DNA of 63,733 bases, the filler included, from Reclinomonas americana ATCC 50394 (Eukaryota), in assembly GCA_048213135.1 (NCBI GenBank). It is 4 parts of 2 records of this genome, joined end to end, with 100 filler letters (N's around TTAATTAATTAA, not from the genome) between each part and the next. Parts side by side here need not be neighbours in the genome. Positions count along the whole stretch, not along the records: positions 1 to 31,610 come from PS015558.1; positions 31,711 to 45,887 come from PS015558.1; positions 45,988 to 61,095 come from PS015558.1; positions 61,196 to 63,733 come from PS015570.1. One strand, 5' to 3'. The notes under the pieces are model-generated. The model was given only the letters and a program-made list of their open reading frames with translations. It did no database searches and had not been told where the DNA came from. Made by a program: the position numbers and the translations under genes. Shown here one piece after another: positions 57 through 62,049 of this stretch (positions are counted from its first letter, which is position 1; every line of letters begins with the position of its first letter).

Positions 57-3000
57 CGTGAATCGCACGACGCTGCTCCTCTTCCGTCTTCTCTGACGGA
101 GGCGGCTTGACGCGAGGCGTAAGCACAAAGAAGAGGCTGGTCAAGAACACCACCGGCACCACAAACAGGCCGCCTGTACGAAACAAATGCACGCGTGTGA
201 GCGGCATTCGAAAAATCGCAGCGCACTCTCCACTATGCAGTCGCACCAAGAAGCGCACGCCACAGTGCACGGAAGAGCATCAGTCCAAAGTCCGCAATGT
301 CGGTGCCGCTCAGCAAGAGGGTGTTCACCCAGCAGCACATGATGAGACCGAGCCACAGCACCTGTGCACGCAACCAGCGTGTGGATCAGCAAACACATGA
401 AGAAGACGTGGAGAGCGTGGACCACTCAACAGTCAATTTTTGCGGTCGTCTGAACGTCTCGCTGCGTCGGTCCTTCACCGCAGTGACCCACACGTGCTCC
501 GACGACAGCTCCTTCACTCGGTCCCACATCTTTCGCAGAGGTCCACGGGAACGGTTGAGTGCAATCACTTGCAGCACGGCCGCCTGGAAGCGCTGAAGTG
601 CTCGCTTATCCTGCCAGAATTTCGTCTCGCATTGAATACAAATGCAATACAATATGCGCAAAAGCAACCACCGCAACTCGGATCTTGTAGGTGCTAGAGC
701 TTGAACTCGAGCCGCCGGCACTATCCGCCTGCCCCGACTGGTCACTGCCGCCGAGGAAGAGGGAGCGCAGGCCGGAACGGTTGCTTCGTGCGTTCTTGGC
801 CGAGTTTGCCAATGCGGTCTTTCGCTTGCGTGCCTCACTGCGTCGCTTTCGGCGATTCAGGCGCGCATCCACCTCTTGCTCACACATCTGCATGAGAATG
901 GTCGCCACGTGTCAGTCACTATTGCGCCACACAAAATATAGGTGCATGCAAACTGGCTTACCGAGTCGGCACGCGTCAGTGACTCGGAAGCGGGTGGTGC
1001 TGGTGCGGGGTCGGTGTGCGATTCTCGAGGTGAGTCGGGCAGATTGTCGTAGAGGCTCTGCCGACCGGCTCGTCGCCGACCGACATGACGAGCGGTCTTC
1101 TTGGTCGCGTTGTCGGCGGCAGCATGTGCGGGCTCGACTTCTCCGTCCTCTCCCACGGCCGACCCGTGAGTACTCACAGTCACCCACTGGCCAGCGGCCT
1201 CGAGTTGCGATGCAGCTGCCCATTCGTCGGCTGACGTCACGTAACCGGGCACCCACTGCAAGCGCGCGCACGAGAGGAGTCAGACTAAAGGTAGTCATGC
1301 TGGGTGACAAGGCGCACGTGCGCGTGTGGGGGACACACCGAGTGCAAGGCCGCGCTGGGCGCATCTGGGCGGCGAAGCGGAATCGCAGCACCCTCCGCAG
1401 CCGCGCGTGCCAGGTCGTCCGCCAGGCTCATTTGGCGCAGTGACTGACGTCGGCCACGCTGTGTGCAACTAAACTTTAGAATTGACGAGCAAACGAAGTG
1501 CAACACACAAACACACATGTGCGCACCTTGCGAACAGCAGACACGTCGTCCTGATCGGTCACCAGGGTGGCCAGATTGCCACGCATACTGGAGGCAGATA
1601 CAAGTGACGAAGAACTGCCCTCACTACGAGCCAGCTGCAGCTCTGCCTCCGAGACGTGTCGAGATGGCAGTCGATGTTGCCTCTGCGTGCAGGCAGATGC
1701 GGTGAGTGAATGCGTGCGCAGACATTTGCGCAACACCAAGACCAACCACTCACCCTGGACGTGCTGCTGATTGACGATAGTGACGCATTGAGATCGACCA
1801 GATCGCCCTCCGCAGCGCTGACAAGAATACCCCGTCGGCGACTGTTCATCGAACTAACCGAGTCGCTTCGTCCGAGAGCGGCACTGTCCAGCATTGTGTT
1901 CGACTGCGGGTGCATCGCGTCAGCAGAGACGTGCATGACGATGACAGCCGAAAAGGCACTCACCGGCACTGGTACCTCAGCCGCGGCCACGTGCTGAATC
2001 TCGGCGACCGGCGGCTAAACGCAAGAAATCAAAGCGACAGTCAGTCATGATTCATCCACGAAAAAGGAGACGCCAGTGAAGACGCACTGCTTGCGGCTGC
2101 TCGTTGACCACTTCCGCCTTTTCGCGTGAGCGTGACGAGGACCGCTTGCCACTGCTCTGGCCCTTCTTCTTCTTTCTGCGACGACCCTTGGAGCGCCCTT
2201 TGCGGCTCTCGTCTTCCAACTCTTCCTCCTCCATGACTGGCAAGGCGTCGAGATCGATAGAGTCCACGTCGATTGTTGATGCCGAACGCGATGGCGCGGC
2301 CGCAGGGATGCGCGACACCAGCGGCTCAGTGATTGGCACGTCTGCATCGGCCTCTTCCTCTTCGTCGTCGGAGGCTTCTCCGGCAAAAGGAATGTCGCCA
2401 AACTTGTCCTTTTCAGCAGAACGCTTGTCGCCCACAATCTGCGCACGCACACATGTCAGTCTTTTGTGACGCGTGTGACACGGGAAAGAGTCACGCACGG
2501 CATCCCAAGCCACGGTAGAGGACCGCGAGGTCATCTTGACAATGTCGGCCAGGATGGCCTTTGTGCGCGGCAAATGCGCCGCAACATCGGCACTGGCCAA
2601 CTCGGCACGAATGCGGCTGAGGAGCTTGTCGATCTCGGAGCGTCGTTTCGAAGACGTCTCCTCCTGCGCACACGCCACACAATGACTTGCCATTGTCCCC
2701 TCACACAACGGCGCGCATCATCACGCTACCTTTTGATCCATGCGACGATCGGCGCGCCACAACAGCAGCACGCCAATGACGTACAGTCCGTGAATGGCGC
2801 ACAAAAAGTAAAACGTGGGACTCGTGAGGAGACCGTACTTGAGAATGAGTGAGGCGTCGGCGGGACTGGCAAAGTTGAAGTGTGGCAGCAAGATGCTGGT
2901 AATGTCGACCGAAAACTCGGTCATGTGAGTCGCTGCACATCGGACGGCCGTCACCTGAAACACGAGAGAGTGAATGAGTGAATGAAAGGAGGAGACGGAT

Positions 3001-6000
3001 ATAAAAAGAAAGGGCGACATCGCACCCGCGGAATGACCCCCGGCAGCAGCGGGGCCACAGTCAGCAGCGGATAGACGCCGTCGGTGGCAAAGGTGCTGTT
3101 TGCAGCGTTCCAGTACTGACACAACGGAAGCATGGTCGAGTTGATGCGCAGTACACTTGACGAGGTGGTGGTCATGTTGAACACCGCGACCGCGGTCACG
3201 TTGTCTGTCATGTTGATGAGAAACCAATTCTGAAGGTTGGTAGAACGTAATGTTACTCACCAACAAACGACGAGCAGTCTTGCAAGTGGCACAAGGCAAC
3301 GAGACCCAGCGCCCCCTGGAACTGTGTGAGTAGCACGTTCTCCTCCGGTACGCTCATCACAAACGGCTCCGGTAGTCCGGAGACGGTAACAGTGCCCGTG
3401 GGGCTCTGTGCGTTCGTGATCATCGCAGGGGGTTAATGCAACACGCTAGCAGAACGCTCGTGAGAGAATCACACACACATACAGACCACAATGGAGTACG
3501 AGTGACAAGAGGAGGTCGTGAGGTTGGCGGCGGCGGCTTGCGGTGAGACTGAACGCGACGTACACGTGGAGAAGTCGGCCTGCGTGTGCGCGGATGAGCA
3601 AATAAAGATCGTAAATACGTACTGCTTGCTCGTTCAGGCTAAACCTGCACAAAGGCGCGCATGTCTGTTGAGCCGCCAGTCACTTGGGACACCAACGAGT
3701 CCGGCAGCGTGACTGACGTCACATTGGCGGCCTGCACTGACGCCGAGCCACACACAGAGGTCGCTGTGTGCAAGTGTTTCTCCAAATGTCAGTACCAACG
3801 CATCGTGCAGGAACTTGAGTACGTTGCAACAACACAAAACTGCACGACATGGACAGCGAAGTGGCGCTGGCCGCAGTCTCGGTGGCGCGGCCGCCCAATT
3901 CGTACGCCGATATGCGCACCATCGGATTGTCAAGGCGCAGAGAGCCCGACCCCGACGTCTGTGAGAGATCAGTCATGCGAACTTGATTGATGTGGAGAGG
4001 AGACGACGACATGGGCGCACCTGCAGCGCTGACACCATCACATGCTCAGCCACGGTGGCCGCCACGGCCTGCAGAGACGAAACAGCCATTGGATCTGCCG
4101 CCTGACTCAGAAGCAGCTGGTTGACGGCCGAGCCAACAGTCTGCGACGTGAACGGTAATGTGAGACAACAATGACGAGAGAACAAGTGCACATCAAAGCG
4201 GCGACTTTGCGCACCGTCAGCTGACTTTGCGTGGTCTTGTCGGTAATTGCAGCACTCAGCAGTGCCTGTGCCACGTTGGCACGCAGCTGCCGGCCGACCC
4301 ACGATCGGACCGGCAGCAGCGTGGCTCCGACTCGGGAGAATTTGTCGGCGGCATCGTACACATTGGAGAGCACATATTGCACGGCATCTGTCGACGACGA
4401 CGATGCACGAGAGAGCGAATCACTCCACGATAACAAATTACCCTCGACCGATGGATCTGCAACAAACAAGTACCGGGGCAGGCGTGAGCACGGCATTCAG
4501 AAAGCACGCAAGCAAGGCGGACTGCTGCGTACCTGTGTCGACAGATGAAGTGCTGCCGTCCAACAATGCAGACGCGCACACTGAAAGCAGGCCGATTACG
4601 CGAGCGGCTGGTGCTTCGCCCTGCGTTACCGCCTGCAAGTCAGCATCTGCACGGGAGAAACGCGAAGGAAAGAATAAAGCAGTGACGTACTCCCGACACT
4701 GATTCAGCACGCCGAAGTCCATCAGATACCAGAGACGCCAGTTGTGACACAGAAAGATCTGCCAGAGGGCACACCGTGGCCTGACTGGAAACAGTGGAAC
4801 TGTGACATGGAACGCGAAAGAGACCGTGAGTGAGAAAAAGACAGACAGCATGCACATAGCACCACGTCGCTTACTCAACGTGGCGCCAAACTTGTCCTGA
4901 ATTCGGACGCCGACACTCAAGTCACACTTGCTTGTGCCACCCTGCCCGGCAGGCAAGAGAACGCCAGACACACTGCTCAGTGTACTATTGGTGACCGCCA
5001 GTGGAACCTCACGTTGGGTCGTGGGGTCCAGGTAGTAGAAACTGAGAATGGTCAAGCTGTCGTCGTCCCCGAAGCCAGTGGCAGAGAACGTGAATGAGGT
5101 TTGCCAGGCCGTGCCGCTGTCCGGGGATATGCGGAACTGGGCCAGCACTGGCACGTCTGTTGTGGTCGTGTTGCGTCGTGCCAGGGCTGGAAGTCAAAAG
5201 AGTGAGTCAATGTGGTTGACAATTTACGAGTCCTCTTTTCTTGCAAATGAACTGCTCACCAGAGCCTAATACCGGATGGCTGACATGCACCTCCAATGCA
5301 TACACCACATTTTCTTGCAACGAACTGGCTGGAATCGAGAGTGCATAATTGTTGCGCTGCACGTCATCTGCCAAGTCCAAAATCGATACCTCGCCCTCTC
5401 TGTTGCGCAGTCAACGACGCTGGGACACACTCAAGGCACGTGCAAAACAAGCACGCAACGCCAGGTACAAGGCCACCCACGAATAGGAGACAGCCTGAAG
5501 ATCCGTGGCTGATGCACCGCGCACCACGGAGGTGCCAGTGAGCGCATTCTGCGGGTCCACCTTGCTGCTCGCAAAGGGCTGTGGCGAGCAAAAAAAAAAA
5601 CACATAAGTCAGCCTTGGAGAGTGAGGGATGGAGGCAAGGCGAACGAAACTCTGACAGTGACGGTGAGACCGCGCGCCGTACTGCCATCAACAGTGGCCA
5701 TTGATCCCATCGACGCAATCGTACGGAAGCAGCTTGGCGGCCCCAGCGTTCCGGAGCCCCGGCTGTTCACCAACGCTGTTCGCACCCGGTACACGGTGTT
5801 GGCGCGCAGACCGCGCACTGTCGCCGACACCGGAGATGCAAGTTGCGCCGACGTAGAGAGCGCCGAAAGCGATGTAACCGCATCCCAACTGCTGCCATGG
5901 TCCACGGGGACGGCCGACTGACACAAGGCACCATCGCTAACCGCCAGTGGCTCCGCCAGGCGCACAGCTTGCACGCTAATGGCGGTGAGCGGCAGATCGG

Positions 6001-9000
6001 TGGGATCCGGCACCGCTTGCACGGACAGCATCAATCGCGACTCGGTGGCCTGCTGCAGAACAGGTGCCAGCGTGGTACCAATGGGGCCGACAACTGCACC
6101 CACAAACCCACGCAAGAGTGAACATGAGTCACCAAGGCAAGAGAGCGACAAAGAAAAACTATAGCTTGTTCAACAAACCGCCTGCCGCAGCTACAGTTGA
6201 GGAAGCCGACATGGGGCCCTGGCCGTTGCCGTTGACAGCACACACGGTGAAAACGTAGTGGCGCAACGGTAGCAGACTGGGCACGGTTACGGCGGTGTTT
6301 GGCGCAGAGACTGTCCAGCTTCCGCCGCCCACCACAGGCACGCCAGCGTCCGTCACTTCCACGACGCCAATGAGGAAGCTGGTGAGCGTGGAGTTTGGGG
6401 CCAGCGACGGCGGCCACGACACGGTTAGCTGCGCAGTCAGACCGTCCACCCTGTCGACAGAGGGAGCCGGCAGCAGACCGGGAAGGAGAACTGCGCGCAA
6501 CACGGCGGGGGGAATATGAGGAAACAACCGACATGCTTCAATAGCATGGCACCACTGCACGTACGGTACGTGGCGCACACAGGCGTCGTGGCGGTCCAAG
6601 GCCCGTCGCCAGCCGAATTTGTGGCGCGCACTCGCGCCGAGTACTCTGCGTACGGGTCGAGACCAGTGAATGCTGCTCCGGGCAGGGGAGACGCCACATC
6701 GACCGCGGCAACAAGGTCTCCAGTGGCCGAATACAGTTCCACAGAGTACGAAGTCATTGGGCAGCAGTGGTGCGCCGTCGCTGCGGCAAAGGTGATTGTC
6801 AGGGCAGTGCTCGTGCGGCTGCCAACCAGAGTCGGAACACCGGGGGCGGACGGGATGCCGCTGGCTGTGCACAGAAAGCACAATGGGGTTGATTGCGACA
6901 GCGATGATTGCTTGTGCGTGTGCACCACGGGCCACAGACAACGCAACCTGTGGGCAACGTGAAGGTGCGAGTCGCCGTGCCACTGCTGTTGTCGCTTCCC
7001 TGAATTTGAACATCCAACGCCACATCCACGAGACCATTGACACTGGACCGAAGTTCGTTCCCGTTGACAATGATGAGCGACGCCGCGCTCGCTCCCCCGG
7101 TGATGGTGAACGACGCGGTGTCACAGCAATTCGGATCCACAAGCGACAACGTGCCAACGAGGCCATTCAGCACCACCGGCGGCACAAACGTTGTCTCGGA
7201 CAACGTCACGTCTGTCGGCGGCAGTGGCACTGTGTGCGGACCACAGAGTGGGGTTGCATATTGAGAATCAAAGGAGAGTGCGTGTGAGAGAGAGAAGAGA
7301 GCGAGAAAAGAGACACACACCTTCGTTAATGACAAATGAGGCGTCGAATGTGAGCGACGCCGTGTCCGTGGCGCGCACTGTGACATGCAATCCAGTTCCT
7401 GTCTGGTGTGCGTTGCGAAGCACAAGTTGCGATCCAAACACATTGAAGAGTGCCGCGTCAGCACCACCGACTACCGTGAACGTGTGCGTGTCATTCGTAT
7501 TGGCGTCGGTGGCGGTGAGGACTCCAATCGCGACGTTGGTGGTGGCCGTGGGCGGTGCGTACGTGTTACTAGAGAGACTCACAGCCGTGGGTGCGGCCGG
7601 CGCTGTGTGCGTGGGGACAGAGACGAATGAGTCAAAAATCTGCGCGGGGTCGATTCGAAGAAGAAATACACACACCTTCGTTGATGAAGACCAGCTGATC
7701 CAGGAAAGAGCCTCCCGAGTCGGTACTGCGTATGAGCAGCGCCAGCTGACTGCCCACCAGCGACTGAGCAGTTGTCACCACCTGCAGGCCATTGATGGCA
7801 AAGCTGCCGAGCGCGGCGCCGCCGACAATGCTGTACACGAATGTATCACAGCAGTTGCTGTCGGTGGACTGCAGGGTGCCGACAACGGTGCCTTGTGGAG
7901 CCGGAGGCGTGTATTGCGACGGCGACAGAGTGATAAGTGTCGGCGGCACGCTCGCTGCGCACGAATGGAAGGCAACGGGGTGAGCACTCACGGACTCATC
8001 GAACACGTGGCAAGAGATACGTGCCTTCGTTGAGAATCAGCGTCTTGCGGAACACACCGCCACCGGAATCGACGACCTCCACCATCACTTGCAAGTTGTT
8101 GCCCGACGCGACATTGTGCGGGGCCACCACGAGCTGATTGCCGGTGATCTGGAACAATTGTTGCTGCGCGCCGCCCACGATGCTGTACGCAAACGTGTCG
8201 CAACAGTTGGCGTCGACAGCCGCCAAGGTCACCACCACTGCTCCCTGCTGGGCCTGGGGCGTGTACTGACTGGGGCTGAAACTGATGTCAGTCGGTGCGA
8301 CCGCCGCTGTTGGGAAAGCACAGTGAGCGGTCACAAGTCAAACGATGGTGGCAACCAAAGAATAGTGCGACCTTCGGCAAACGTCAGGGATTGATCGAAG
8401 GTGCCGCCAGCGCTGTCTTGCACGCGCACCACCACTTGAATGCCATTGTTGGTGATGGCTCCCTGTGCCGTCGCACGAACGACCAGCTGGTTTCCTTGGA
8501 CTGTGAAACGACTGCCGTAGGCGCCGCCGACAACCGAAAACGTGAATGTCTGGCAGCAGTTGGCGTCGACAGCAGTCAGCGTACACACGGCAGTGCCGAT
8601 GGCAGCCGGTGGCACATAGGTCAGTCTCGACGCAAGAACACCCGTTGGTGGAGAGTTGGCTGCAATACATGGAGCACGAGATCAGCAACATGTTGCGTTG
8701 CGCACGTGCAATGACTCTCAACAACACACCTTCGTCAATCGTGAACGACACCGACACAGTCAGTCCGGTCGAGTCTTGTGCAGTGATCCTTGCAGGCAGG
8801 CCGTTGCCTGTTTGGCCAGTATGCAGGAGGACTAGCGATCTTCCGACGACGGCAAATAGCGGCGTGGAGACGTCCACGGAAAAAGTGTGCGAATCGATCA
8901 CATTGCCGTCCACAGCGGCCAACAAGCCAATCACCGTGCTGGTGCTCGTCGTGGGAGGCACATAGGTGGTCGAGGTCAGTGTGATGTCCGTGGGCGCCAC

Positions 9001-12000
9001 CGGAACTGCAGGTGATTGGGAGAGTAAAGATGAGGCAAAGGACAACGCAGCATACACACACACGAGGGCACGCGCACGTGCGTGCATACGTGCCATCATT
9101 CACTTGCAGCAGCTTGTCAAAGGAGGCTCCGCGCGAGTCTGTGACGCGAATCATTACCATGAGCGCGGTACCGCGTTGTCCGGCGGCCGCCACTCGCAAA
9201 TCACTGTTGAGAATGACAAACAACGATGCGCTGGCGCCGCCCACAATGGTGTAGGTGAACGACTCGCCGCTGTTGACATCGGTCGCACTCAACGTGCCGA
9301 CGAGCACATTCGGCAGCGCCGTCGGCGGCGTGTACGTATTGTTCGACAATGTAATGTCGGTGGGCGCGACATTCACTACGCGCACGAGAGAGGTACGCTG
9401 ATGAGCGGCGACTGGAAAAACAGAAGGAAGGAAAACAAAACGCACCTTCGCTGATGAAGAACTGGCGAGTGAACGATGCGCCAGCCGAATCAGTGGTGCG
9501 GATCAGTACCCCCAGATTGTTTCCGGTGAGCGCTGCCACGCTGGAACGCAGCGTGTTGCCGACAATGGAGAAGAAATTGGGGTTGAGGCCGCTGACCACC
9601 GTATACGTAAATGTCTGGCAGCAGTTTGAGTCTTGCGTCGACAGGGTGCCGATTACAGTGTTGATGGGGCATGGTAGGGAGTAGAGCACTGACGACAGCG
9701 AGATGTCCGATGGAGCAACATTTGCTGAACGGTTCGGGGACCACACGTGAGACACACAAGTAGGGCAAAAGCACATGCATACACGTGTGACACACCTTCA
9801 TCGATCGTCAGCGTTTGTGTGAAGCTCAGTGATGTGCTGTCGGTGACGCGCACTGTCACTGATAGCCCGTTACCGCGTTGTCCTGCAGCCTTGATGACCA
9901 GCAGCGACGACGACACAATGTCAAACAGGGAAGGTGCGTTGACGATGGCGAACTGGAAAGTGTCGTTCACGTTGCCGTCGACGGCACTCAGAATTCCGAC
10001 GATAGAATTGTCACTTGCGGTGGGCGGTATATACGTGTAGGACGACAGAAGGATGCCCGTTGGTGTCGCAGGAGCTGGGCAACGTAAAACCAGCAAATCA
10101 GGTATTGACAAATAAAACCACCATTGACACACGAGCAGCCGTCACGCAACAGTCGGTAATGGTGAATGTCTGATCAACGCTCGCGCCCGCGGCATCGGTA
10201 CTGCGCACAGTAACCACGAAGCTGGCACCCGTCTGACCGTTGTTCACAAACGCCAGCACATTGGCCACAGTCGTGAAAAGTGATGCGTGAAGGCCGCCCA
10301 CCACCGAGTAGGTGAAGCTGTCGACGGCATTCACATCGGCTGTCGACAGCACGCCGACTGCAAACAGAGCGGACGACGTCGGAGGACGGTATGTGGTGGA
10401 CGAAATGGTGATGCCGGTGGGGGCCACGTTGTCTAAAATTGAGAAATAGTACGCAGTCAGAACGAGATGCACCGTGTGCGTGACAGGCTTGACCAAATGC
10501 GTGCGCAACTTTCGTTAATGACAAACGTCTGCGTAAATGTGCCCCCCTTGGCGTTGTCGGTGCGCACCTGCACCTCCAATCCAGTTCCGCGCTGACCAGC
10601 GGTCATCAAGCACAGGGAGGAGTCACTGATGGCAAAGAGGGCGGCATTCTGTCCACCAGTGATGCTGTATGTGTACACCGCGCCGACACCCGTGCTGACA
10701 GTCGTCAGAGTGCCCACGACAGTCATGGCGGCGGCCGTCGGCGGCGTGTATGTTTTTGCGGACAACAGAATGTCCGTTGGCATTGGATTCTCTGCGGATA
10801 GACAAGAACACCATCGTCATCAAAGAGTCTCGTGCACAGCGGGAGAATGACTGACACCACACCTTCATCAATCGTAAACGTCACTTGCACGGTGCCTCGG
10901 GCGCCGTCGTCACTCTGGATAATGACCTCGAGGGAACTTCCCGTCTGCTTGACGTCATTCAACAGGAGACTGGAGCCGGAGATGGAGAAGAGGTCTCCAG
11001 AACCGCCGCCGACAATGGAATAGATGAACTGCTGGCAGCAGTTGCGGTCGATCGTGGTCAACGTGCCCACCACAGTGTTGGTGGTTGCAGTTGGCGAAAC
11101 GTAAGTCTTGGACGACAGCAGAATGCCAGTAGGAATCACATTGGCTGCAACAAGTGAACAGTGAGTCACACAGAGAGGCAATGGAGAGCACAGCAACGGG
11201 GATAGATCGACGCACCTTCGTTGACAGTGAATGACTTGGAGGTGGACAGACCCGACGAATCTGTGGACTGTACAGTGACGCCCAGACCGTCACCAGTTTG
11301 GCCCACGTTGCGCAGCACCAGCATGTTGCCCACGACGGTGAACAGGCTGGCCGGTGCACCAGTGGTGCTCACAATCGAGTACGAGAAGGAGTCCTGCACA
11401 TTGCCGTCCACCGTACTGAGAGCGCCCACCACCGTGTTGGTGGTGAGGGTGGGCGGCGTGTACGTCGATGAGGAGAGCTGAATGTCAGTCGGCGCCACCG
11501 GTACTGCAGGTAAACGCAAGATTTCAAGTCAACACCAATAACACAGACACACAGTTGGCACCCTTGTCCACCCCACCATCGTTGATCACAAAGCGCTTGT
11601 CAAACGCCGCGCCTCCGTTATCCGTAGCCCGAATCACCACCTCCATATTGGTGCCCGTCTGACCAGCAGCGCGGATACGCAGCAGGTTGCCGACGGCCTC
11701 GAAAACGGAGGAAGAGCTCCCACCGGCAATGCTAAAGGTCACCGTGTCGCCCTGATTCGGGTCAGCGGCGCTCAACACACCGACCACGGTGCTGGTCGAT
11801 GATGTTGGCGGCTGGTACGTTGTGCTGGAGAGAGTGATATCAGTCGGTGCGAGGTTGACTGTGCGCACAAAACGAGTCAGCACCAGCACACAAAAGTCAA
11901 AGCGTACACAGTGAGTGATGCACCTCCGGTGAACTGGAGCGTTCGGCTGAGCGGCACATGAAAGCCATCGTCCACCGACACAGTCACTTGCAGTGCACCA

Positions 12001-15671: not shown

Positions 15672-15712
<41 letters not shown>

Positions 15713-49930: not shown

Positions 49931-50202
49931 CACAGAGTCGTGTTCTCTCTCCTTACCTCCACCATGTCATCGACTGCGGTGCTTGGTACCTGTGCGCCCG
50001 AGGAGTACTGCAGCGAAACAATGCGCAACACAATGCCTGTATGTGTGTGTGTGTGGTGTGTGGGCACTTGTCAGCAACTCTTTCTCTCTCTCTTTCTCTC
50101 TCTGTCAGTGACACAACTGGCCGCAAAGTCATCCACATCATCGCGACCGCGTTGCTTGGCAGTGGCCACCACACGGGCCACGAGCTCTGCTGTGCTCGTC
50201 AT
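47302..50202 (-). CDS. CFAP206: Cilia- and flagella-associated protein 206
   Basis: TETPTHFVETHIDPTYQYNEWTMRRRALQLADLRTKRTHSTQTHKSHFRRENSSQ and APELVEIMGL; frame-consistent exon chain from the ATG at 50202. Confidence 0.88.
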
Positions 50203-50252: not shown

Positions 50253-53200
50253 TTATTGTCCACCGCCTTGCACATGCTCGACCACGCGCTCCACCAGCTC
50301 GGCCTTCTTGCCTCCACGTGGCAGTTTGTGGTGCGCCAAGTAGACCTTTAGCTGGTCGATGGTCAGCTTGGTTATCTGTGCAGCAAGGAAAGGGAGAGGT
50401 GTTGAATATTCTTCTTCCTTTCTCGGAATATCGATATCGAGGAAGCGTAACTGTGCCGGTCGCCACCATGTTGGCCCAGTTGATGTCGTCGTAGCCGGCG
50501 GCGGCCTTGGCTCGCTTGGAACCGCTGGCGCCATCGGCGTCCTGTGGAGGAGTGTTTCAGCGACGAGTTGTCCTGTTTCTGCTGGTGTAAACGAAACTTC
50601 GTCGGCGCCGCGCTTTGGTGCCGCCTTCTTGGCGCCCATGGTGCGCTGCGGATCGTAGCCGGGACCCATGATGTTAACCTTGAAGTCGTCGATGCGTCGT
50701 CGAACCTCGGCCTGTTGCGGGGAGAGTGAGGGAGAGCGAGCGCCCTGCTAAATGTGTAGCGAGGGTGCACCACGAAACATCAAAGAGACCGGGGTCCGGC
50801 AGGGCCTTGTCCTCGAACGGCGGCTCGTCCTTGCTCTCCAGTGCCAGCGCCTCCAAGTGATTGCAGAACTTGGTCAGAGCTGCGCGAATGATGATGAGTC
50901 GCCCGCCACTGGTTCTGTTCACGATGTATACAAGCTTGCGAAACCTGGGTTCGGGATGCTGACTGACATGTAATCGGCGCAGAGTTTCGTGATTACGCGT
51001 TTCGCGTACGGCACCACAGCCGGATCACAGCGCGGACGCTCCTCCTGTGCATGGCAAGGCGTGTGAGCTGTCACTGTCGTCCGAGAGAACGCCCTCTCCC
51101 CACCGCACGCACCCCATCAAAGGTGAGATCGCGAATGTCGTCGCGGTACGGCAGCGGAATGCAGTGGAAGCCATTCGGCACCACCACCAAGCCATCGCGG
51201 TCGGTGACCTCGGCCTGCGCCATCAGCGCCACAAAGCGCGGCTGTGCACCGTGTCGCGGCACTGCACGGCAAATGGCAACCTGCGGTGGTGGGTGGTCAA
51301 CGAGTTGTCACGTCACGGCGTGACAGACACGAAATCAAACCCTTTGCTGCTCGATCATTTCACGATGCAGGGCCACCAGTGTCGTCGTGCTGCCATGAAT
51401 CCACTGTCGCACGAGCAGTCACACATGTCAGGCAAGCAAAGGAAAAAGAAGGGGTGGACGAAAAAGAGTACACAGAATACCTCCTCATCCGGATAGAGAA
51501 ATGTCGGTGGCTTGAGATTGTGCCACGGCTTGAGTGTGGAGACTGGCTTGAAGCCCATCAGCTTGAATCCTGCGCACACATCCACGACCGCGTGAGAGAC
51601 ACGTGCGAACGACACTGCGAAAGCGCGACTTGGCGAGCGCACCGTGCGGCACGTCGCCCAGCTTGATGCTGTCGAGTTCCTGCTTTGCAAAGTACACCTC
51701 GTCGCTTCCAAACTCGTGTGCATACGAAAAATCGCTCGGCAGCACGTAGGATGTGGTTTCTGTGCACGCAAAAAGGAGACAGTCAAGCATCTGCAGACAC
51801 TCCTTCTCCCCCTACTTCTTCACACACCAACGTCGGTGTACGTGCGCTCCAATCGAACCGACTTGTTGGTGCCCTTCTGGATCCACATGGGTGTTGGCTT
51901 CTTGGCCGGCATCACCATGTGGTAACTGCGCACGCAGGCAGAGGCACGTTGTGTCACGCATTTACTGCACAAGAGCGACACGCACAGCACGCAACACTCG
52001 CAGGCCAAGCTGGAAGCCCTCCTCGCCAATGGCCAGACTCACTCTGCCACTCGTCCGCTTCTTGCCGGCTCGATAGCGCACCACACTCTCCTCTTCCTCC
52101 AGCTGCAAGACAGAACACGTGAGACGACGCTTCTCCTCATCAAGACACTCACAGCCACACACACCGTGTCGCCAACATCACGAATGCCACACACGTCGCC
52201 GAGGAACATGGACGATGCATTGGCCTTGTTCACCACCGCCTATTATGCAAACGCGCGTAGTTGTCAGCAGCAGCAATCAATCACGACGACGACGAGTGCG
52301 TAAAAACGCACCTGCCAAAACGTCGAGCGATCGATCTTGACGCCCCGATGCCGCACCGCCAACACGTCAATGGTGACGCGGCTGTCGGCCAGGTTCTGCA
52401 GACACAACGGTCAACATGGGCCGAGAGGGAGAGAGGGAGACAGGGAGAGAGAGAGAGGGAGAGAGGGAGAGGGAAGAGGGGAAGAGAGTGAGAGATACAG
52501 TGAGGAAGAGAGGAAGTGGGAGAGAGAGAGAGAAAGGGAGACTGAGAGAGAGAAGGAGAGACGCAGAGAGGAAGAGGGTGAGGTGGACGAGGGCCGGGAA
52601 GAGAAGAGATAGCCTCAGACAGAGCACGAGGAAGAGAGAGACAGCACACACTCAAGTCTGTCTCTCTTGTGCATTCTCATGCTCTCTTCCCTTCCCCATT
52701 TGTTATCTCTCAGCAGACCTGCACACGCTCCAGCGTCAGCGTCAGCACACTGGCATCGCCCGGCTCCTCTTCGTTGGTGCACACAAAAATGCGTCGCGTG
52801 CCGATCTTGGCCGTTCTGCAAAGCATCGCGAATGAGCGACACATAACCGGCAGCCTCCATCCATCCAACCACCACAACAATAACACAACTGCTCATTGAA
52901 GAGATACGACGCCGTCCACAGCGCCTGATGCAGCGGATACGGCGTGCGGGCCGTGTACTTGCCAATCGTGGCCTCAAACGAGTCGGCGGCCACGGCATGC
53001 GCATTCTCCGAGAACTCAAGCAGTGTGCGGATGCGCCCGACACTCGGCTCCTCAAACGGCATGTGCACAAAGCTGTGCTTGAAGTCGTACGGAGACCGAC
53101 TCTCGCGCTGGCACTCGCGGAGTGAGCTCGAGAATGCAATAGAGAGAGAGAGAGAGAGAGAGAGAGAGGCACATACCGTTGCATAATAGACTACGCCCAG

Positions 53201-53692
53201 CAGATCCTTGTCACTGGTCACAATCTTGTTCTTGTGGAAGAGGGCGGCGAGACGAGTGGCCACGGAGAATCCACACTGTACATGCAATCAGTCTCTCTTC
53301 TCACTCTTTTATTCTCTTCTCTCTCTCTCTCTTACTCACCGATCCATGCTCGTCCACCTCAAACATCTTCGGGCCGCAATCAATGAGGAAGAGCAGGCAG
53401 TCGCGAGTGCTTTCGCGAAACTATTCACAGACAAGTCGATGTCGACCAAATGCGCGGGAAAAACAATAGGAAATCCGTGAGTGCACACGAGAGAAGAGAG
53501 AAGAGAGAAGAGAGAGAGAGAGGTGTGTGTGTGTCTCTCTCTCTCTGCCTTACACACCTCCTTGTCAATGTCTTCGCCGAATTCGTCCTCTTCCGCCTGC
53601 AATCACAATCACGCATTCAGTGCACACACACACACACACTCTCTCTCTCACTCTCTCGCAACATCGTCGCCGGGCTGCCACACGTCACTCAT
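50253..53692 (-). CDS. XRCC6: Ku70 NHEJ DNA-end-binding protein (vWA, beta-barrel, SAP)
   Basis: RDCLLFLIDCG, KIVTSDKDLLGVVYYAT, RRIFVCTNEE, GFKLMGFKP, FLYPDEE, PRFVAL, GFHCIPLPYRDDIR, and SAP KLTIDQLKVYL...KKAELVERV. Confidence 0.95.
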
Positions 53693-55252: not shown

Positions 55253-58200
55253 TCTCTTCCCCCTCCCTCCCCTTTCACTGACGCAGCTCGCTTCGCAGAC
55301 AAGCAATGAGACGCACACGGGCGAGCTGACAGTGACGTACGACACGGGCGAAAATGTGGTGGTTCGTTTGACGGGCACCGCCGAAGATCTGTTTGTGACG
55401 CTGTCGACGAGTTCGCTGCGCATGGAGGCGTCGTTCCTGGGCTTGACCACTCGGCGCACTTTCAAGCTGCACAACCGCAGTCGCAAGAAGGTGGTCTACG
55501 AGTGGAAGCGATTCGCCACGGAAATGGAGGAGGACCAGGCGCGTGTGCGCAAGAACCTCTTGTTGACGGTGCAGGAGAACGCAGAAGAGTCGCGCAGTGG
55601 CAACGCCGCGCGAGACTTGTCACTCATTTCCCGCAAGTACGATGTTGAGTCGCACGCACGCGCCGTTTCCGTCCATCCGTTTACCCCTTTCCTCACACTC
55701 ATCCCTCCTGCACGACAGCAACTGCGACGTGAGTTGGACAGCGATCGATTCCTCTTTGACGACGAGGTGTTCCTGATTGAGCCCATTGCCGGTGAAATTC
55801 ATCCCGGCGGCGAGCACACCTTTACCGTGACTTTCCATCCCGTGGTGCGTGTCTGTGTCTGGTGCTCATCTCCTTCCCACTCTCGTCTCCCTCATTTGAT
55901 GTACGTTTTTTTGTGTTGTGGCAGATGGCTGCGGTGTACGATCGCGTGGCCTACTGTGATGTGAGTGGTCGCGAGATGCGCTTGCCACTGGAGCTCTCTG
56001 GCGAAGGCATTGCGCCGGACGTGTGCTTCAGTTACACGTCGGTGGATCTCGGCGAAGTGTTTATCCACTCGCAGCATTCGTATGAGTTCGTGCTGGAGAA
56101 TCGCGGCCAGATCGACGCACAGTACAGGTACCAGCCGTCCGACACCGACATGAGTCGGCGTTTCCAGTTCACACCCGACTGTGGTGTGCTGGCCGCTGGC
56201 GACCAGCAGCTGATTGTGGTGTCGTTCTGCTCGGACATTCTGGGCACGGTGGATGAGGAGTTTGAGTGGCGAGTGGAGGGTCGACCGGAGAGTCTGTTCC
56301 TGCGCATGCGAGGTACCGTCATTGGACCGCGCATCTCGGTCGATCGCCACTCGCTCGATTTTGGCGACGTGTCGAACGGTTTCATGGCGACCGAGGCGTT
56401 CTACTTGGTCAACGAGTCCGACATTCCCATCAGCTACAAGCTGCACATTCCGGAAGACGGCCGCATGCTGCGCCGTGAATTTNNNNNNNNNNNNNNNNNN
56501 NNNNNNNNNNNNNNNNNNNNNNNNNNNNNNNNNNNNNNNNNNNNNNNNNNNNNNNNNNNNNNNNNNNNNNNNNNNNNNNNNNNNNNNNNNNNNNNNNNNN
56601 NNNNNNNNNNNNNNNNNNNNNNNNNNNNNNNNNNNNNNNNNNNNNNNNNNNNNNNNNNNNNNNNNNNNNNNNNNNNNNNNNNNNNNNNNNNNNNNNNNNN
56701 NNNNNNNNNNNNNNNNNNNNNNNNNNNNNNNNNNNNNNNNNNNNNNNNNNNNNNNNNNNNNNNNNNNNNNNNNNNNNNNNNNNNNNNNNNNNNNNNNNNN
56801 NNNNNNNNNNNNNNNNNNNNNNNNNNNNNNNNNNNNNNNNNNNNNNNNNNNNNNNNNNNNNNNNNNNNNNNNNNNNNNNNNNNNNNNNNNNNNNNNNNNN
56901 NNNNNNNNNTGTCGCCGTGACGACTAACTTTGTACATTTGTTCGCACAGGCTTCCTGGTGATCCCCATTCGCGCGCAGTGCACTGTGCCGTCGATCCGCC
57001 TGTCGTCGCCGGAGATCATCTTTGAGTCGTGCCTGATTGGCAAACCGCACCAGCAGTCCATTATTTTGACCAATCCCTCGCCGTTGCCGCTGCGGTACGA
57101 ACTGCAAGTGCCGACATCGGAGGCTGTGCGCTTCGAGCTGAGCGCCGAGCGTGGCATCCTGCACGGCAACTGCGAATCGGTGCTGTGGATCACGGCCACG
57201 GCACTGCACCTGGGCACCCATTTTTATCCCATTTACGTCAAGGTCATTGGCTCAATGGTCGATCCCGTGTGTTTGGGCACGCGTGTCGATGCCATTGGCC
57301 CGAAAGTCACGGTCAATGTCGAAGAGGTCAACTGGGGCAAGGTTTGTAGCCATCCTTCACCATTCAACGATTCTGCACGCTTGGTTGTTTTGCGCTCATG
57401 CTGCGTGACAGATTCCGGTGCTGGAGCGCGTGGAGCGTTCTGTCACGCTGATCAACCACTCGGATGTCGATGCGCAGTTCTCGGCTTGCGTTGAGCGCGG
57501 CGACGACACTGGGTTCACGGTGCTGCCGGAGAATGGTACGATTCCGGCCAATGGCACTCTGGATCTGGTGCTGGTGGTGCGTGGTCGACCTCTCTTTTGC
57601 TCTTTTTTTTCTGTCACGCTCCCCCCACTCATTCACGCGAATGCAGGCCTGCTGCGACGAGTCGACCAAGTTCAACGACGCCCTGATCGTGCAAGTCATG
57701 TATGGCACCGAGTGTGGTACGTCCGTCTGTCTCCTTCCATCGAATTCATGTTCTTGATTGAGTGGAACTTGAAAAAATCAATCTTGCGTTTCCCTCTCTC
57801 TTGCAGTGGTCCGTCTGATGGCCTCCGGCACCGGCAGTCCTCTGGCACCGTCGTGCGATTTGTCGCAGCTGTACCTCGGCAACCACTTTACGGCTCGTCC
57901 GATTGTGCACCGATTCACCATTGAGAATCACGGCCGCAAGCCACGTCAACTCATCTGGTCCAAGGTCCGCCCCAAGGTACATACACTTTTACCTTCAGCT
58001 CACTCTCTCCTCCCTCTCATCTCAATCATGGCGTGATCACAGAAGGCAGTGGGGTCATCGGCGGCGGCTGACGGCAGCGACTCGGAGCCGATTTTCAACT
58101 TGACGCCAGCCAAGATCACGATCCCGCCAAAGAGTAGCTGTGACTACGTACTGGAGGGTATCAGTCCGGAGCGCACGGGCCTGCTGGAGGAGCGCTTCCA

Positions 58201-61095
58201 GTGCAAGATCACTCTCGGCAAGACCACCTTTGTGGCCTACGAGCTGACCGTGTCGGCAGACGTCGGTGTGCCGCTGTTGGAGTTCTCGCACACGGAGGTG
58301 CCGTTCTCTTTCTCGTATGCACCCGACCAGGAGGAGAATACTCTGGCGCAGCCGCTGACGCTGAAGAACGTGTCTGCGCTGCCGCTGACGTTCACATTGC
58401 GACCGCCTGCGCCGTTTATTGTGGACCAGACGCACCTGTCGCTGCAGCCGCAGCAGTCGGCCAGTGTCAGTGTGGAGATGGATCCGACCTACCGAGGCGA
58501 TCGTGTGTCCCACAAGATTCGCAACAAGCTGCTCATCACCTACGCGGACCACCCGCAGCGCGATGGTGTGACACTGACGGCCGACATCAACTTCCCCAAC
58601 TTGCAGCTGGAGACCGATGTCGTCGACTTTGGCTGCATTGTCAATCAGGGCGAGAAGTCGGCCGTGCTCAACATGACGAATGTCAGCCGTCTGCCTGTCT
58701 CATACCGCTGGGTGCTGCAACGCGACATTCCCGAGGGTCGCCAAGTTGATGGTGAGTAATGTGATGGATTTGTTCTCTTCCTCTCGCGACTCATGTTTTG
58801 CGTCCTTTCAGCTGCCATGCTCGACGGCATCAGCAACTATTTTGACATTCTGCCCCTGCACAACGTGCTGCAGCCGGGCCAATCGGAACAAACGGAGATT
58901 CTGTTCAGCGGTCGTCCCAACAGCAAGCAGACCGTCAAGGCCGTGTGCGAGGTGGACGGCGGCCCCTCGTACGTGGTCTCTCTGTCGGGCTCGACGGCGG
59001 CCATGTCGTTCCGTGTGGAGAACCAGGAACTCGATTTTGGAGAGATCCAGTTCGACCGCCCCACCGACGCCGAGGTGGTACTGGTCAACACCAGCGCCGT
59101 CCCGTTCACCTACACTGTCGATCTCAGTGGCATCTCTGTGCCGGGACGGATCACAGTGCGCCCCGACAATGGTGTGTGTCTCTCTGCTGTGCGTGTGTGT
59201 GGGCCAGAAAGTGTGCGCGCCCTCACTCATATCTCGTGTGCAGCGCGTGTCGATGCCAACGCTTCGCGCCGTCTGTCTGTCAAGTTCGTGCCGTACATCC
59301 CCGACGTGGTGGTCGAGCGCTTCTACATCCAGGTGGCGCACTTTGATCCGGTGCCCATCACGATTCGCTGCATCGGCACCTTCCCGCGTGTGATGATTAC
59401 GCTGCCGCTCAAGTCGGATGAGATGAGCGGCTTCTTGCAGCGTGCCGCTGATCTGGTCTCGCGTGGCGAAACTCCGCTGCCGGTGGCCGACGCGGCTCTG
59501 GCGCACCTTGTGCGTCGTACGCAGAACCCACCGTCGCGCCAGGCCACTTCCACGGGACCGACTCCAACGCAGAGTGTGGTGGGAGTCCAGCGTGCTCAGA
59601 GGTGCGTGCGCCGCGCGAGTGCTTCCCTCATTCGTCACAATTACTTATCTTCGTGCGCCTGCCGTTCAGCCCGTCTGCACTCGGCGCCGGCTCCATGATG
59701 ATGAAGACCCCGCAGCAAGTGGAGATTGAGGCCGAAGCAGGTATGCAGGCTGACAAAGAAAGCAATGTGCGCGTGCGTGCGTGTCTGTCTCCTCACCCTC
59801 CTGTCTGTGCTGTGTCACGCCACAGAGCGCCTTGCGCTTGTCGACCTCCTCATGAACACTCCGGTGTCGTCCACCACCATGGGCGCGACAGCAGCCGCGT
59901 CACGACGGACAACGGCCGTCGCCACCGCGACTGCTGCGGGCGCGAACCGTCCGAACACGGCCACTGGATGTGCGTGTGTGATTCGCGTCTCTCCCTCTGT
60001 TTGTCTGAGTTTCTCACACCACTCATTGACTCGTGCAGTGATTCAACTGTCGACGGAGCGCCTGTCGCTGAGTACCTACGTTTGCGACTTTGGCCATGTG
60101 GTCCGCGGCTCGGTGAAGCGCAAGGCATTCCGCATCGTCAACACGGGCTACTCGCAAGTGTCGCTCAACTTTGACAAGCGCGCCATGCTGAACACTGGCT
60201 TCTCCATGGAGCCCGATAAGTTTGGCCGCATTCCCGGTGCCCCGAACAACGAAGCCGTGGAGGTGGCGCTGACGTTCCAGTCCAAGGTACTGCTGCGCGT
60301 ATGATTGTGCGACGACGGGTACAGTGAGACTCACACGGCGCACACGCTGCGCACAGAGTATTCCCGAGGGTCCACTGGAGCGTGTGGTGCCGGTGCACAT
60401 CAAGGGCTCGCCGAATGTGAATCTGCTGCTGCGCGCCAACATTGTGATTCCCGACGTGAACCTGTCCACCAGTCGACTGGACTTTGACACGTTGCGTCTG
60501 CTGTTGCTATTGTCGTTCGATGTCTGTTGCTTACGAGGATGGGTGTTGGGTTACGAATGCAGCGTTCTGTGTGGCCAGACAAAGACCATGGTGGTGCAGT
60601 TGCACAATGCCAAGAAGTTGCCGTGCGAGTGGGCCTTCAAGCCAAGCACCGAGGCGCGCAGCGACGAGTCACGCTTCCAGTGCGTGCCGTCGGAGGGCAC
60701 GCTAATGCCCGACGAGCGCATCAATGTGGCAGTCACCTTCGTGCCGAACAAGGAGCGCACCTTCCAGGCCAAGCTCACCATCAAGTGCAACCAGAGCTCC
60801 GCCAGCCACGCGATTCAGTGCCGTGGTGTCGGCGAGGAACTGCACATGGCAATCGAGCCGCCGCAGATCTCCTTCCCGCCGACCATGCCGTTCAAGGGCG
60901 AGGACTTCTTCTTCCAGCTGCAGAACCACAGCAATGTGCCAGTGGAGGTGTACTCGCTGGACTTTGATCAGCAGTACATGATCGAGGAGGAGGTGCTGCG
61001 CTCAAATGAGGCGCTGAAAACGGGACCGCTGCTTCTGCCGCCACGTCAACCGGGCGATGTGCTGCCGCAGCATCTGGTTGATGAGCACCACGAAG
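53949..61095 (+). CDS. HYDIN: HYDIN central-pair protein (ASH/MSP repeats), 5' part, truncated at linker
   Basis: VAPGMEVRFAVSFTPE, CITEREKFVVPV, LPDEIDFGACPVKY, AYCDVSGREMRLPLEL, YVCDFGHVVRG, EVYSLDFDQQYMIEEEVLR. Confidence 0.95.
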
Positions 61096-61195
61096 NNNNN
61101 NNNNNNNNNNNNNNNNNNNNNNNNNNNNNNNNNNNNNNNTTAATTAATTAANNNNNNNNNNNNNNNNNNNNNNNNNNNNNNNNNNNNNNNNNNNN

Positions 61196-61467
61196 ACCGC
61201 ATGCTTCTCAAACGTCCACGCCGCACGCGGCTCATCACCTTGCAACACAAGTCTGGTCGCATCCAGCACCACACGCGCCACTGCCACATCGCGCTCACTC
61301 GGCGCCGGCATCGGTGGCGGTAACCGCACTCGGGGACACGGCAGCGACTGCGCATGCATCCCTCGTCCACTCATCATCACCATCATCATCGGTCCACCCA
61401 CGTACAACAACACCAGCGCAAACAACAGCACCATTGCGCCGACAACAACTGCTCGTGATCGCAGCAT
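61196..61467 (-). CDS. 5' fragment of a type II membrane or secreted protein
   Basis: MLRSRAVVVGAMVLLFALVLLYVGG...; runs into a gap. Confidence 0.5.
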
Positions 61468-61542
61468 CGAGCGAATGCACACACACACACACACACACAC
61501 CCAGCGCACGGTTTACTTGTTGTGTTTGCGATGCGAGGGTAG

Positions 61543-62049
61543 CTATCTGAGAGGTCGCACGGAACCACTCAGCGGATCAAATCGAAGCTCCAGCGAGCGC
61601 AGACTGGCGTTGGTGTAATCGACAAACTTTTGCGGATCGCACACTCGCGCGTCCGCGTGGAAGTGCATGGCGCGAATGTACATCCATAGAACTAGCAGCG
61701 CTGCGGGGATGGCACAAGCCTGCAGCACTAGCGATGCAGAGATCTGTGATGCGCGTGAGCTAGTGAGAAGGCCCAGTGAGCGCGTTTCCACACAGACCTC
61801 GCTGGAGCTGTGTATCACCCATGCAGCGCGGACGGAGAGTGCACCAATCACCACCAGCAGCACGATTGACTTGACTGCGTTGTGTGTGTGAGAGAGGGAG
61901 AGTGTGCATGTGGAGGTTTGTGTGCGCGCGCAACTTGTGAACTTGATGTGTTCTCTCCTCGCCGACGAGTACTTGTGCCGCAGTCGCACCTCGAAGGCAC
62001 TAAAGTCGGCGCGTTGGTCGTCGGTCCACACCACTCCATGGGCATTCAT
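61543..62049 (-). CDS. CNEP1R1: Nuclear envelope phosphatase regulatory subunit (TMEM188/NEP1-R1-like), 3 exons
   Basis: DFSAFEVRLR, two TM helices, and VCDPQKFVDYTNASLRSLELRFDPLSG. Confidence 0.65.
   Translation of the reverse strand: MNAHGVVWTDDQRADFSAFEVRLRHKYSSARREHIKFTSCARTQTSTCTLSLSHTHNAVKSIVLLVVIGALSVRAAWVIHSSSEVCVETRSLGLLTSSRASQISASLVLQACAIPAALLVLWMYIRAMHFHADARVCDPQKFVDYTNASLRSLELRFDPLSGSVRPLR

Follow-up and report, generated by a model that had tools for sequence, protein, structure and literature searches.

In a 63,733-base window of the genome of Reclinomonas americana ATCC 50394 (assembly GCA_048213135.1), about one predicted intron in five begins at an atypical 5' splice site, or donor, in which the usual donor core lies one base further downstream behind a T at intron position +3, and in which the preference for G as the last exon base (-1G) is lost. 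The window is the whole stretch of DNA that was analysed, made up of four parts of two genome records joined end to end. We call a donor an S donor when it reads GTTNNGY and lacks G at +5, and a canonical donor when G is present at +5. The existence of the S class in the window is confirmed, and its frequency, its requirement for T at +3 and the loss of the -1G preference are direct observations. Their best-supported reading, which we hold at slightly better than an even chance, is that this organism routinely uses a 5' splice-site register shifted by +1, in which the first intron base, +1G, replaces the exon -1G.

The S donor class

Introns were predicted by a codon-potential dynamic-programming parse that combined a length prior, a three-periodic coding model trained on its own predictions and acceptor scores set by hand for YAG and the branch motif. 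In the donor-blind version the donor term was flat, any GT being equally good, and 135 donors were predicted. The main, exon-blind version used a three-component donor model obtained by expectation maximization (EM) on intron positions +3 to +9 only, and exon bases were never used. The first self-trained parses, made without splice signals, were discarded as too noisy, and a k-mer search for branch motifs was abandoned because it was swamped by microsatellites.

The exon-blind parse placed 130 introns: 29 with S donors (22%), 84 with G at +5 and 17 with other donors. S donors occurred in all three phases (11, 9 and 9 in phases 0, 1 and 2). Both this spread over the phases and a share of roughly one donor in five had been proposed in an initial annotation of the window, which listed 31 main GTTNNG sites after A, C or T and two more after G. 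GTTNNG was present on the strand given there at all 33 positions, and direct reading of the sequence agreed that none of the 31 main sites comes after G (A precedes 13 of them, T 12 and C 6); +7 was C or T in 29 of them, with 677 (GTTGCGG) and 53662 (GTTGCGA) as exceptions. The exon-blind parse recovered 27 of the 33 sites and added two, 48296 and 3644. The two sites listed after G (6947 and 50944) are indeed preceded by G, and the parse contains a third S donor after G at 3644 (G/GTTTAGC). The sites not recovered (26395, 60491, 677, 37564, 50451 and 53662) lie where the gene models break; 60491 was confirmed by homologues and 50451 was supported by a SAP profile. The listed sites had also been described as required by the reading frame, which is so for most of them, by frame alone, and not for 50117, 52889 and 677, where in-frame alternatives exist.

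The class was also present when the parser saw nothing of the donor beyond GT. S motifs made up 19 of the 135 donors in the donor-blind parse compared to 3.0% of the sense-strand GT sites in predicted gene spans, a 4.7-fold enrichment (p = 2.8e-8). Unsupervised EM on the same 135 donors returned a GTtgCGtt component with a weight of 0.29 when two components were fitted, and.a.GTTGCGt with a weight of 0.22, beside aG/GTGcGt, when three were fitted (the slash marks the exon-intron boundary). Predicted donors stood at 12 of the 23 GTTGCGT heptamers of the window (both strands), compared to 24 of 100 GTGCGT sites.

The last exon base differed sharply between the two classes. In the exon-blind parse, -1G preceded 3/29 S donors compared to 57/84 canonical donors (Fisher p = 5.3e-8), and in the donor-blind parse the corresponding numbers were 3/19 and 44/71 (p = 5e-4). 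In this window, GTTNNG donors were therefore not independent of the -1 base, in agreement with the initial annotation. The difference was found outside the giant gene that occupies the first 18 kb (1/16 S vs 35/50 canonical, p = 6.7e-6) and inside it (2/13 vs 22/34, p = 0.0034), on the minus strand (3/24 vs 41/57, p = 1.1e-6) and on the plus strand (0/5 vs 16/27, p = 0.043). By phase, -1G preceded 1/11 S and 27/35 canonical donors in phase 0 (p = 9.4e-5), 2/9 and 27/42 in phase 1 (p = 0.029), and 0/9 and 3/7 in phase 2 (p = 0.063).

Donors with matched cores gave the same picture. Among GCGT cores, -1G preceded 17/24 donors of the form GT+GCGT but 1/12 of the form GTT+GCGT, and among GAGT cores 6/7 of the form GT+GAGT but 0/5 of the form GTT+GAGT. 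For the pooled GNGY cores, the numbers were 39/60 for GT+GNGY vs 1/22 for GTT+GNGY (p = 5.4e-7). Since these matched cores differ by the extra T alone, this indicates that one T flips the exon-end preference, from 65% to 5% -1G. Canonical-register donors with T at +3 (GTTNGT) followed G in 4/4 cases (6178 and 48936 on the minus strand, 54930 and 57342 on the plus strand).

The displaced core required T, and no other base, at +3. The donor-blind parse used 19/96 GTTNHGY sites (H, any base except G), compared to 1/29, 3/86 and 2/231 of the corresponding sites with A, C and G at +3, at a base rate of 4.2%. A general one-base bulge that accepts any nucleotide was ruled out by this restriction to T. 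Positions +4 to +8 of the S donors (G 76% or T 24%; C 69%; G; T 83%; G 45%) mirrored positions +3 to +7 of the canonical donors (G 79%; C 44% or T 37%; G; T 74%; G 44%), which indicates that S and canonical donors have one core in common, displaced downstream by one base in S. S donors were also overrepresented in phase 2, where -1 is the second codon position (9/29 S vs 7/84 canonical, p = 0.005).

The canonical donors of the window have a character of their own. They read GTG(C/T)GT: at +3, G makes up 79% and A 13%, and at +4, C and T together make up 81% and A 18%. Animal and plant donors, unlike these, read GURAGU. Judged from the sequence, the GTG(C/T)GT consensus could reflect an unusual U1 5' end, or a lost preference for +4A that involves U6 N6-methyladenosine.

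Cleavage point and intron type

The cleavage point was examined by sliding the donor 3 to 9 nt either way in multiples of 3 nt, and aligning each spliced model of the HYDIN gene to 150 HYDIN homologues. At 60491, 74 of 130 spanning alignments were ungapped at shift 0 compared to 0 to 2 at any other shift, with 5,986 bits compared to at most 5,137; in the test over all HYDIN junctions, 80 alignments were ungapped at shift 0. At 55644, 26 of 80 were ungapped at shift 0 compared to at most 9 elsewhere, with 4,645 bits compared to at most 4,346. Canonical HYDIN donors taken as controls behaved in the same way. Of the 19 HYDIN junctions, seven gave 25 or more ungapped alignments at shift 0 and were counted as informative; each of the seven, both S donors among them, peaked at the predicted site.

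Paralogous exons of the giant gene provided a second test. Most of its cadherin-like exons end in GAAG/GTGYGT, and at the same domain position others end in GAAA/GTTGCGC (10509), GACT/GTTGCGT (10150), GAGA/GTTTCGT (15124) and ACAG/GTTGCGT (6947). When these four junctions were shifted against eight canonical paralogous junctions, each peaked at 0, the peak at 6947 being weak. Comparison of homologous and paralogous sequences thus fixes the predicted cleavage point at six donors: 55644, 60491, 10509, 10150, 15124 and, weakly, 6947. Cleavage 3 nt later was rejected, because it would need GC, GA, TC or AC donors everywhere except at 50117 and 52889, and because the homologue and paralogue tests drop at +3. 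Retention of GTT in the spliced product, an outcome that the initial annotation had named as contrary to its claim, was accordingly not seen: for the six donors the tests peaked at the GTT site and dropped at +3 and -3.

Protein profiles supported two further junctions. The exon after 50451, in the Ku70 gene, matches the Pfam SAP profile (E 2.5e-11) from profile position 2 onwards and is joined in frame through a 76-nt intron. The exons flanking 38201 cover positions 67-118 and 123-172 of the Yip1 profile and are contiguous within about one residue. For the remaining S donors the support comes from open frames and coding potential, and among the seven S donors of Ku70 the SAP match at 50451 is the sole residue-level support. 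Human Ku70 and EB1 presumably agree with the junctions at 50944, 50778, 50451, 52889 and 37564, an agreement that was not counted as evidence. Protein homologue searches with one HYDIN exon and two Ku70 exons gave no matches. A phmmer search of the PDB with Ku70 exons of 33 to 38 amino acids and an EB1 stretch of 65 amino acids also gave 0 matches, the query exons being too short. A metagenome scan for relatives returned two loci at 26% identity, too distant for a comparison of orthologous introns.

In other respects S introns resembled the canonical ones. All 29 were GT...AG, with C at acceptor position -3 in 28 and T in one, AG and YAG being scored by the parser. A branch motif of the CTSAY or TTSAC type, which the parser rewards, was present in 23/29 S and 73/84 canonical introns at a median of 19 nt from the 3' splice site in both, and the median intron length was 70 nt in S and canonical introns alike. 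By their termini, their branch motif and the restored protein continuity at homology-supported sites, S introns are of the U2-type GT-AG kind. U12-type introns carry an extended RTATCCTT donor and a TCCTTAAC-like branch site; they were ruled out here, as S donors read GTTGCGT, GTTGAGT or GTTTCGT and the branch motif is CTSAY as in the other introns. An all-against-all blastn comparison of intron interiors returned one low-complexity pair only. In the absence of shared interior sequence, S introns do not form a mobile family, and an introner-like origin was ruled out.

Candidate modes of recognition

Under the +1-shifted reading, S introns would be ordinary short GT-AG spliceosomal introns in which T at +3 displaces the canonical core by one base. 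Cleavage would stay before GT while the recognition helix is offset by one base, so that +1G would fill the slot of exon -1G, +3U, which would pair with U1 A7, that of +2U, and +6G/+7U those of +5G/+6U. Both classes would then share a common 7-mer, G-(G or U)-U-G-C-G-U, which would be cut behind its first base in canonical donors and ahead of that base in S donors. The last exon base would be freed, and introns would be tolerated where coding forbids G, in keeping with the overrepresentation of S donors in phase 2. By analogy with the human shifted register, the shifted partner would be the U1 small nuclear RNA (snRNA) 5' end, and U6 would then have to tolerate a G:C pair six, not five, bases from the cleavage site.

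Several results weigh against this reading. The A 11, C 5, G 3, T 10 profile of S donors at -1 differed from canonical -1 (p = 4e-7) and not from canonical -2 (p = 0.51), as a shift would predict, but the canonical -2 profile is nearly flat and its match to S -1 is a weak test. The 3/29 frequency of -1G was compatible with the frequency of G at canonical -2 (p = 0.34) and marginally under a 30% background (p = 0.024). The -1 data are a loss of the G preference, and neither active avoidance of G nor pairing of +1G with a given snRNA base. Thermodynamics gave partial agreement at best: RNAduplex, run with the human-type U1 5' end from PMC4856993, which may not be that of this organism, predicted the shifted register for GUUGAGU donors, while GUUGCGU, the commonest core, was weak in every register at about -1 kcal/mol, and the mean was -2.1 kcal/mol for S compared to -5.8 kcal/mol for canonical donors. 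This weak pairing of GUUGCGU indicates that the class is not accounted for by simple U1 thermodynamics. Either U1 pairing is less important in this organism, or its U1 has an unusual 5' end. An Rfam scan of the window returned nothing at the gathering threshold, and relaxing the limit to E = 1 brought up no snRNA; it thus provided no U1, U5 or U6 sequence.

The sample and the parser count on the same side. All results come from a single window of about 20 genes, and 51 of its 130 predicted introns fall in the 1-18 kb region of the giant gene. The parser is home-made, with an error rate known for HYDIN only, and the other 12 of the 19 HYDIN junctions lie in poorly conserved stretches and carry no weight either way; about 40% of the HYDIN junctions could not be resolved by homology. 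Splicing at S sites is inferred from reading frames, homology and paralogy. The listed sites 26395, 37564, 53662 and 677 have open-frame support alone, and at 50117 and 52889 (both GTTGTGT) the donor-blind parse took the in-frame GT 3 nt downstream, which makes these two sites ambiguous. From their sequence, 50114/50117 and 52886/52889 might be tandem donors through which one residue is gained or lost.

It is also conceivable, though on the unlikely side, that two registers have become routine through dedicated hardware, either a second or unusual U1 complementary to GUUGCGU, or a U6 ACAGA box that pairs six bases out. If so, U6 pairing six bases out would break the fixed-ruler rule for 5' cleavage, and the S class would be selected for freeing the last exon base from G, which fits the phase-2 excess.

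One alternative is a bulged U, which we consider unlikely. In this arrangement U1 would pair normally with +1G and +2U, loop out one U (+2/+3) and pair with the core one base on, and the lack of -1G would have another cause. The sequence need is the same, GUU plus a displaced core, so that the class defined by the bulge +2/+3 register (Roca et al. 2012; Tan et al. 2016, PMC4856993) overlaps fully with the S class; a slip between two U's fits the restriction to T at +3 as well as a shift does, and the displacement of +4 to +8 is equally predicted. The +2/+3 bulge has been validated in human, with 54 curated cases among 201,541 sites described in PMC4856993. It would, however, keep both the -1G:C9 and the +1G:C8 pairs, and beside a destabilizing bulge -1G should be favored at least as strongly as in canonical donors, whereas S donors have lost it in the full set and in the matched cores alike. 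This comparison is a statistical test and not a pairing assay, and the lost -1G preference speaks against the bulged register. The four canonical-register donors with T at +3, all of which keep -1G, point in the same direction.

A dedicated or altered snRNA that is contiguously complementary to GUUGCGU is a somewhat less probable candidate. It might be a U1 whose 5' end departs from the universal ACUUACCU, a second U1 paralogue or a U6 variant. The canonical core of the window, GTGCGT or GTGTGT, in which few donors carry A at +3 (13%) or +4 (18%), is a poor fit to a human-type U1, and the two classes differ at one position of the common 7-mer, which a single snRNA base change could cover. The U1 5' end is, on the other hand, among the most conserved eukaryotic RNA sequences, and no snRNA was found in the window to back this explanation. 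The +4 preference may equally reflect U6 or its modification state, as discussed in PMC11732430.

Recognition at the tri-snRNP stage appears about as improbable as an altered snRNA. Here S donors would be an intron-driven, U6-favored class like NN//GURAG, with the U6 ACAGA box shifted by +1 and paired with +6G/+7U, and the absence of -1G would reflect a generic seesaw between exon contacts of U5 loop 1 and intron contacts of U6. A two-class model of this kind, AG//GUNNN vs NN//GURAG donors with an exon/intron seesaw within one register, has been described for several species (PMC11732430), and as in the window one class leans on the exon end and the other on the intron core. The strongly conserved +6G and +7T, present in 100% (by definition) and 83% of S donors, could be of use to U6 just as to U1, and a U6 register shifted by -1 has been reported once, at human STAT3 (PMC11162779). 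In the two-class model, however, both classes share one register, whereas in the window the intron-driven class has an extra base and the canonical class shows no seesaw. In this small sample, -1G preceded 38/56 canonical donors with strong GTRNGT cores and 19/28 of those with other, weaker cores. The initial annotation had held that exons ending in G use degenerate donors, which these numbers do not support, and that the remaining exons without a final G mostly use a perfect GTRCGT, which was found in 9/27 canonical donors after non-G. Of its register-shift reading, the mainstream class, the displaced core and the lost -1G preference were thus upheld by statistics and homology, while exon/intron compensation within the canonical class was not. 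The change from 65% to 5% -1G in donors with the same cores, through the extra T alone, also argues against a seesaw, and according to PMC11162779, cleavage is fixed 5 nt upstream of the +5G:U6 pair except at STAT3.

That the class is an artefact, with GTT sites that are not true cleavage points, stretches that are not introns, or a -1 pattern produced by donor picking, is very improbable: the in-frame alternatives at 50117, 52889 and 677, the four sites with open frames only and the pull that the parser's S component could exert on borderline cases count in its favor, but the class appears in the parse that sees only GT, and exon bases are unused in the final parse. With two exceptions, the sites would need GC, GA, TC or AC as donor if cleavage took place 3 nt later, and for six donors the peak of the shift tests coincides with GTT.

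Gene context, individual sites and known counterparts

Gene identities were assigned by Pfam on 118 candidate exons and 17 further exons. The largest gene (minus strand, about 1 to 17.9 kb; REJ, fn3, cadherin-like and NHL repeats) holds 13 of the listed sites. It is followed by genes for CFAP206 (FWWh; about 24.3 to 26.3 kb), EB1 (about 36.3 to 37.6 kb), Yip1 (38.0 to 39.6 kb), an fn3-like protein (43.4 to 45.9 kb), actin (46.0 to 46.7 kb), Ku70 (50.3 to 53.7 kb) and HYDIN (54 to 61 kb). HYDIN matched 1,750 library proteins at E <= 0.001, those listed being mostly 4,000 to 5,000 residues long, and one member of the homologue cluster carries the source name 'hydrocephalus-inducing protein'. The names HYDIN, Ku70, EB1, Yip1 and CFAP206 (FWWh) given in the initial annotation fit these Pfam matches and homologue source names; the largest gene is none of these five.

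Within the giant gene, the stretch 4772-17874 on the minus strand encodes tandem cadherin-like domains of about 93 amino acids, one exon per domain, together with REJ, fn3 and NHL pieces. The domain exons are mostly 276 to 312 nt long and nearly all run from phase 1 to phase 1, and across these paralogous exons a given domain position carries now a canonical, now a shifted donor. In Ku70, the final model has one 212-nt intron at 51262-51473 (minus strand) where the donor-blind parse has two introns around a short exon at about 51364-51403, an exon that the final model has probably missed.

G+C in the window is about 45 to 60%, and the genes are crowded with short introns, which measure about 50 to 130 nt and carry CTSAY branch motifs and CAG acceptors. 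Many introns contain (GA)n, (GT)n or (CT)n microsatellites, for example after 50117, 53662, 37564 and 48516 on the minus strand and after 30506 on the plus strand. About a quarter of the predicted donors lie within GTGTGT runs, which make exact placement difficult. Twelve masked runs of N, 3,213 bases in total, lie inside or adjoin the giant gene, CFAP206, actin and HYDIN (12784-13125, 17884-18323, 24854-25742, 40375-40877, 46663-47010, 56483-56909 and six of 44 bases), and some exons and introns are consequently absent from every count. A low-complexity stretch beside a masked run, at 40921-41316, gave many Rfam matches (miRNA precursors, Hsp83 3' UTR) far below the gathering scores, which we take as composition artefacts.

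Table 1. Predicted and candidate S donors of the window. A slash separates the last exon base from the intron; positions are those of the whole stretch.
Feature	Position	Strand	Support or remark
S donor T/GTTGAGT	424..430	-	exon-blind parse
Candidate S-like donor A/GTTGCGG	671..677	-	+7 = G; in-frame alternative at 668; not uniquely required; open frame
S-type donor G/GTTTAGC	3638..3644	-	exon-blind parse; absent from initial annotation; one of three S donors after G
S donor A/GTTTTGT	3834..3840	-	exon-blind parse
S donor C/GTTGAGT	4873..4879	-	exon-blind parse
S donor C/GTTGCGT	5453..5459	-	donor-blind and exon-blind parses
S donor A/GTTTCGT	5644..5650	-	exon-blind parse
S donor after G, G/GTTGCGT	6941..6947	-	exon-blind parse; paralogue shift test peaks here, weakly
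S donor T/GTTGCGT, cadherin-like repeat exon end	10144..10150	-	exon-blind parse; paralogue shift peak 0
S donor A/GTTGCGC, cadherin-like repeat exon end	10503..10509	-	exon-blind parse; paralogue shift test
S donor T/GTTGCGT	14706..14712	-	exon-blind parse
S donor A/GTTTCGT, cadherin-like repeat exon end	15118..15124	-	exon-blind parse; paralogue shift test
S donor T/GTTGCGC	16001..16007	-	exon-blind parse
S donor A/GTTGCGT	16815..16821	-	exon-blind parse
Candidate S donor A/GTTGCGC, CFAP206 (FWWh) gene	26395..26401	+	open frame only
S donor C/GTTGCGT	28682..28688	+	exon-blind parse
Candidate S donor T/GTTTCGC, EB1 gene	37558..37564	-	open frame only; unrecovered by parse
S donor C/GTTGCGT, Yip1 gene	38195..38201	-	exon-blind parse; flanking exons on Pfam Yip1 profile
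S donor T/GTTGAGT, Yip1 gene	39272..39278	-	exon-blind parse
S donor T/GTTGCGT	43822..43828	+	exon-blind parse
S donor C/GTTGCGT	44016..44022	+	exon-blind parse
S donor T/GTTGCGT	44559..44565	+	exon-blind parse
S donor A/GTTGCGT	47486..47492	-	exon-blind parse
S donor A/GTTGAGT	48290..48296	-	exon-blind parse; absent from initial annotation
Ambiguous donor A/GTTGTGT	50111..50117	-	in-frame GT 3 nt downstream at 50114
S donor A/GTTACGC, Ku70, before SAP-domain exon	50445..50451	-	Pfam SAP; open frame
S donor A/GTTTCGT, Ku70	50591..50597	-	exon-blind parse
S donor T/GTTTCGT, Ku70	50772..50778	-	exon-blind parse
S donor after G, G/GTTTCGC, Ku70	50938..50944	-	exon-blind parse
S donor T/GTTGCGT, Ku70	51989..51995	-	exon-blind parse
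Ambiguous donor A/GTTGTGT, Ku70	52883..52889	-	in-frame GT 3 nt downstream at 52886
Candidate S-like donor T/GTTGCGA, after first Ku70 exon	53656..53662	-	+7 = A; open frame only
S donor T/GTTGAGT, HYDIN	55644..55650	+	exon-blind parse; homologue shift test
S donor C/GTTGCGT, HYDIN, 72-nt intron	60491..60497	+	homologue shift test; unrecovered by parse
S donor A/GTTGCGC	61928..61934	-	exon-blind parse

The closest known counterpart of the S class is found in human cells, where shifted and bulged U1 registers have been proven (PMC4856993). In the human +1 shifted register (Roca and Krainer 2009, as described in PMC4856993 and PMC11162779), all pairs between the 5' splice site and U1 are moved by one position. 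As in the S class, cleavage takes place at GU, the consensus core lies one base downstream and -1G is not needed. The human core is AAGU, however, whereas that of the S class is GCGT, GAGT or TCGT, and the human partner is U1, a role that U1 would have here by inference. The two also differ in frequency, as the validated non-canonical registers, all taken together, account for 1.5% of 201,541 human 5' splice sites in PMC4856993 compared to 22% of the predicted introns here. A bulged register would in addition keep the -1G:C9 pair, and in the S class the -1G preference is lost.

A second counterpart concerns the cleavage step, which normally takes place five bases upstream of the +5G:U6 pair (PMC11162779). 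At the tandem donor of STAT3 (Kramarek et al. 2024, PMC11162779), as would be the case in the S class, the distance from the cleavage site to the G-U that pairs with U6 C42/A41 departs from five bases. At STAT3 it is four bases (-1), in one gene and probed experimentally, whereas in the window six bases (+1) would apply to a fifth of the introns, as predicted from sequence. A study of tunicates raises a shifted register only as a possibility (PMC13326754), and our open-access full-text literature search returned no report of a lineage with a shifted donor as a major class.

A donor class of this frequency has practical consequences, as gene finders with a single donor matrix would misplace about one intron in five in this genome. 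It would also account for the persistence of introns at places where the codon does not allow G as the last exon base, and it would offer a natural system for studying how U1, U6 and U5 hand over a shifted site and yet cleave at GU. If the class is lineage-wide, a flexible register can turn into a mainstream feature of intron recognition that is open to selection.

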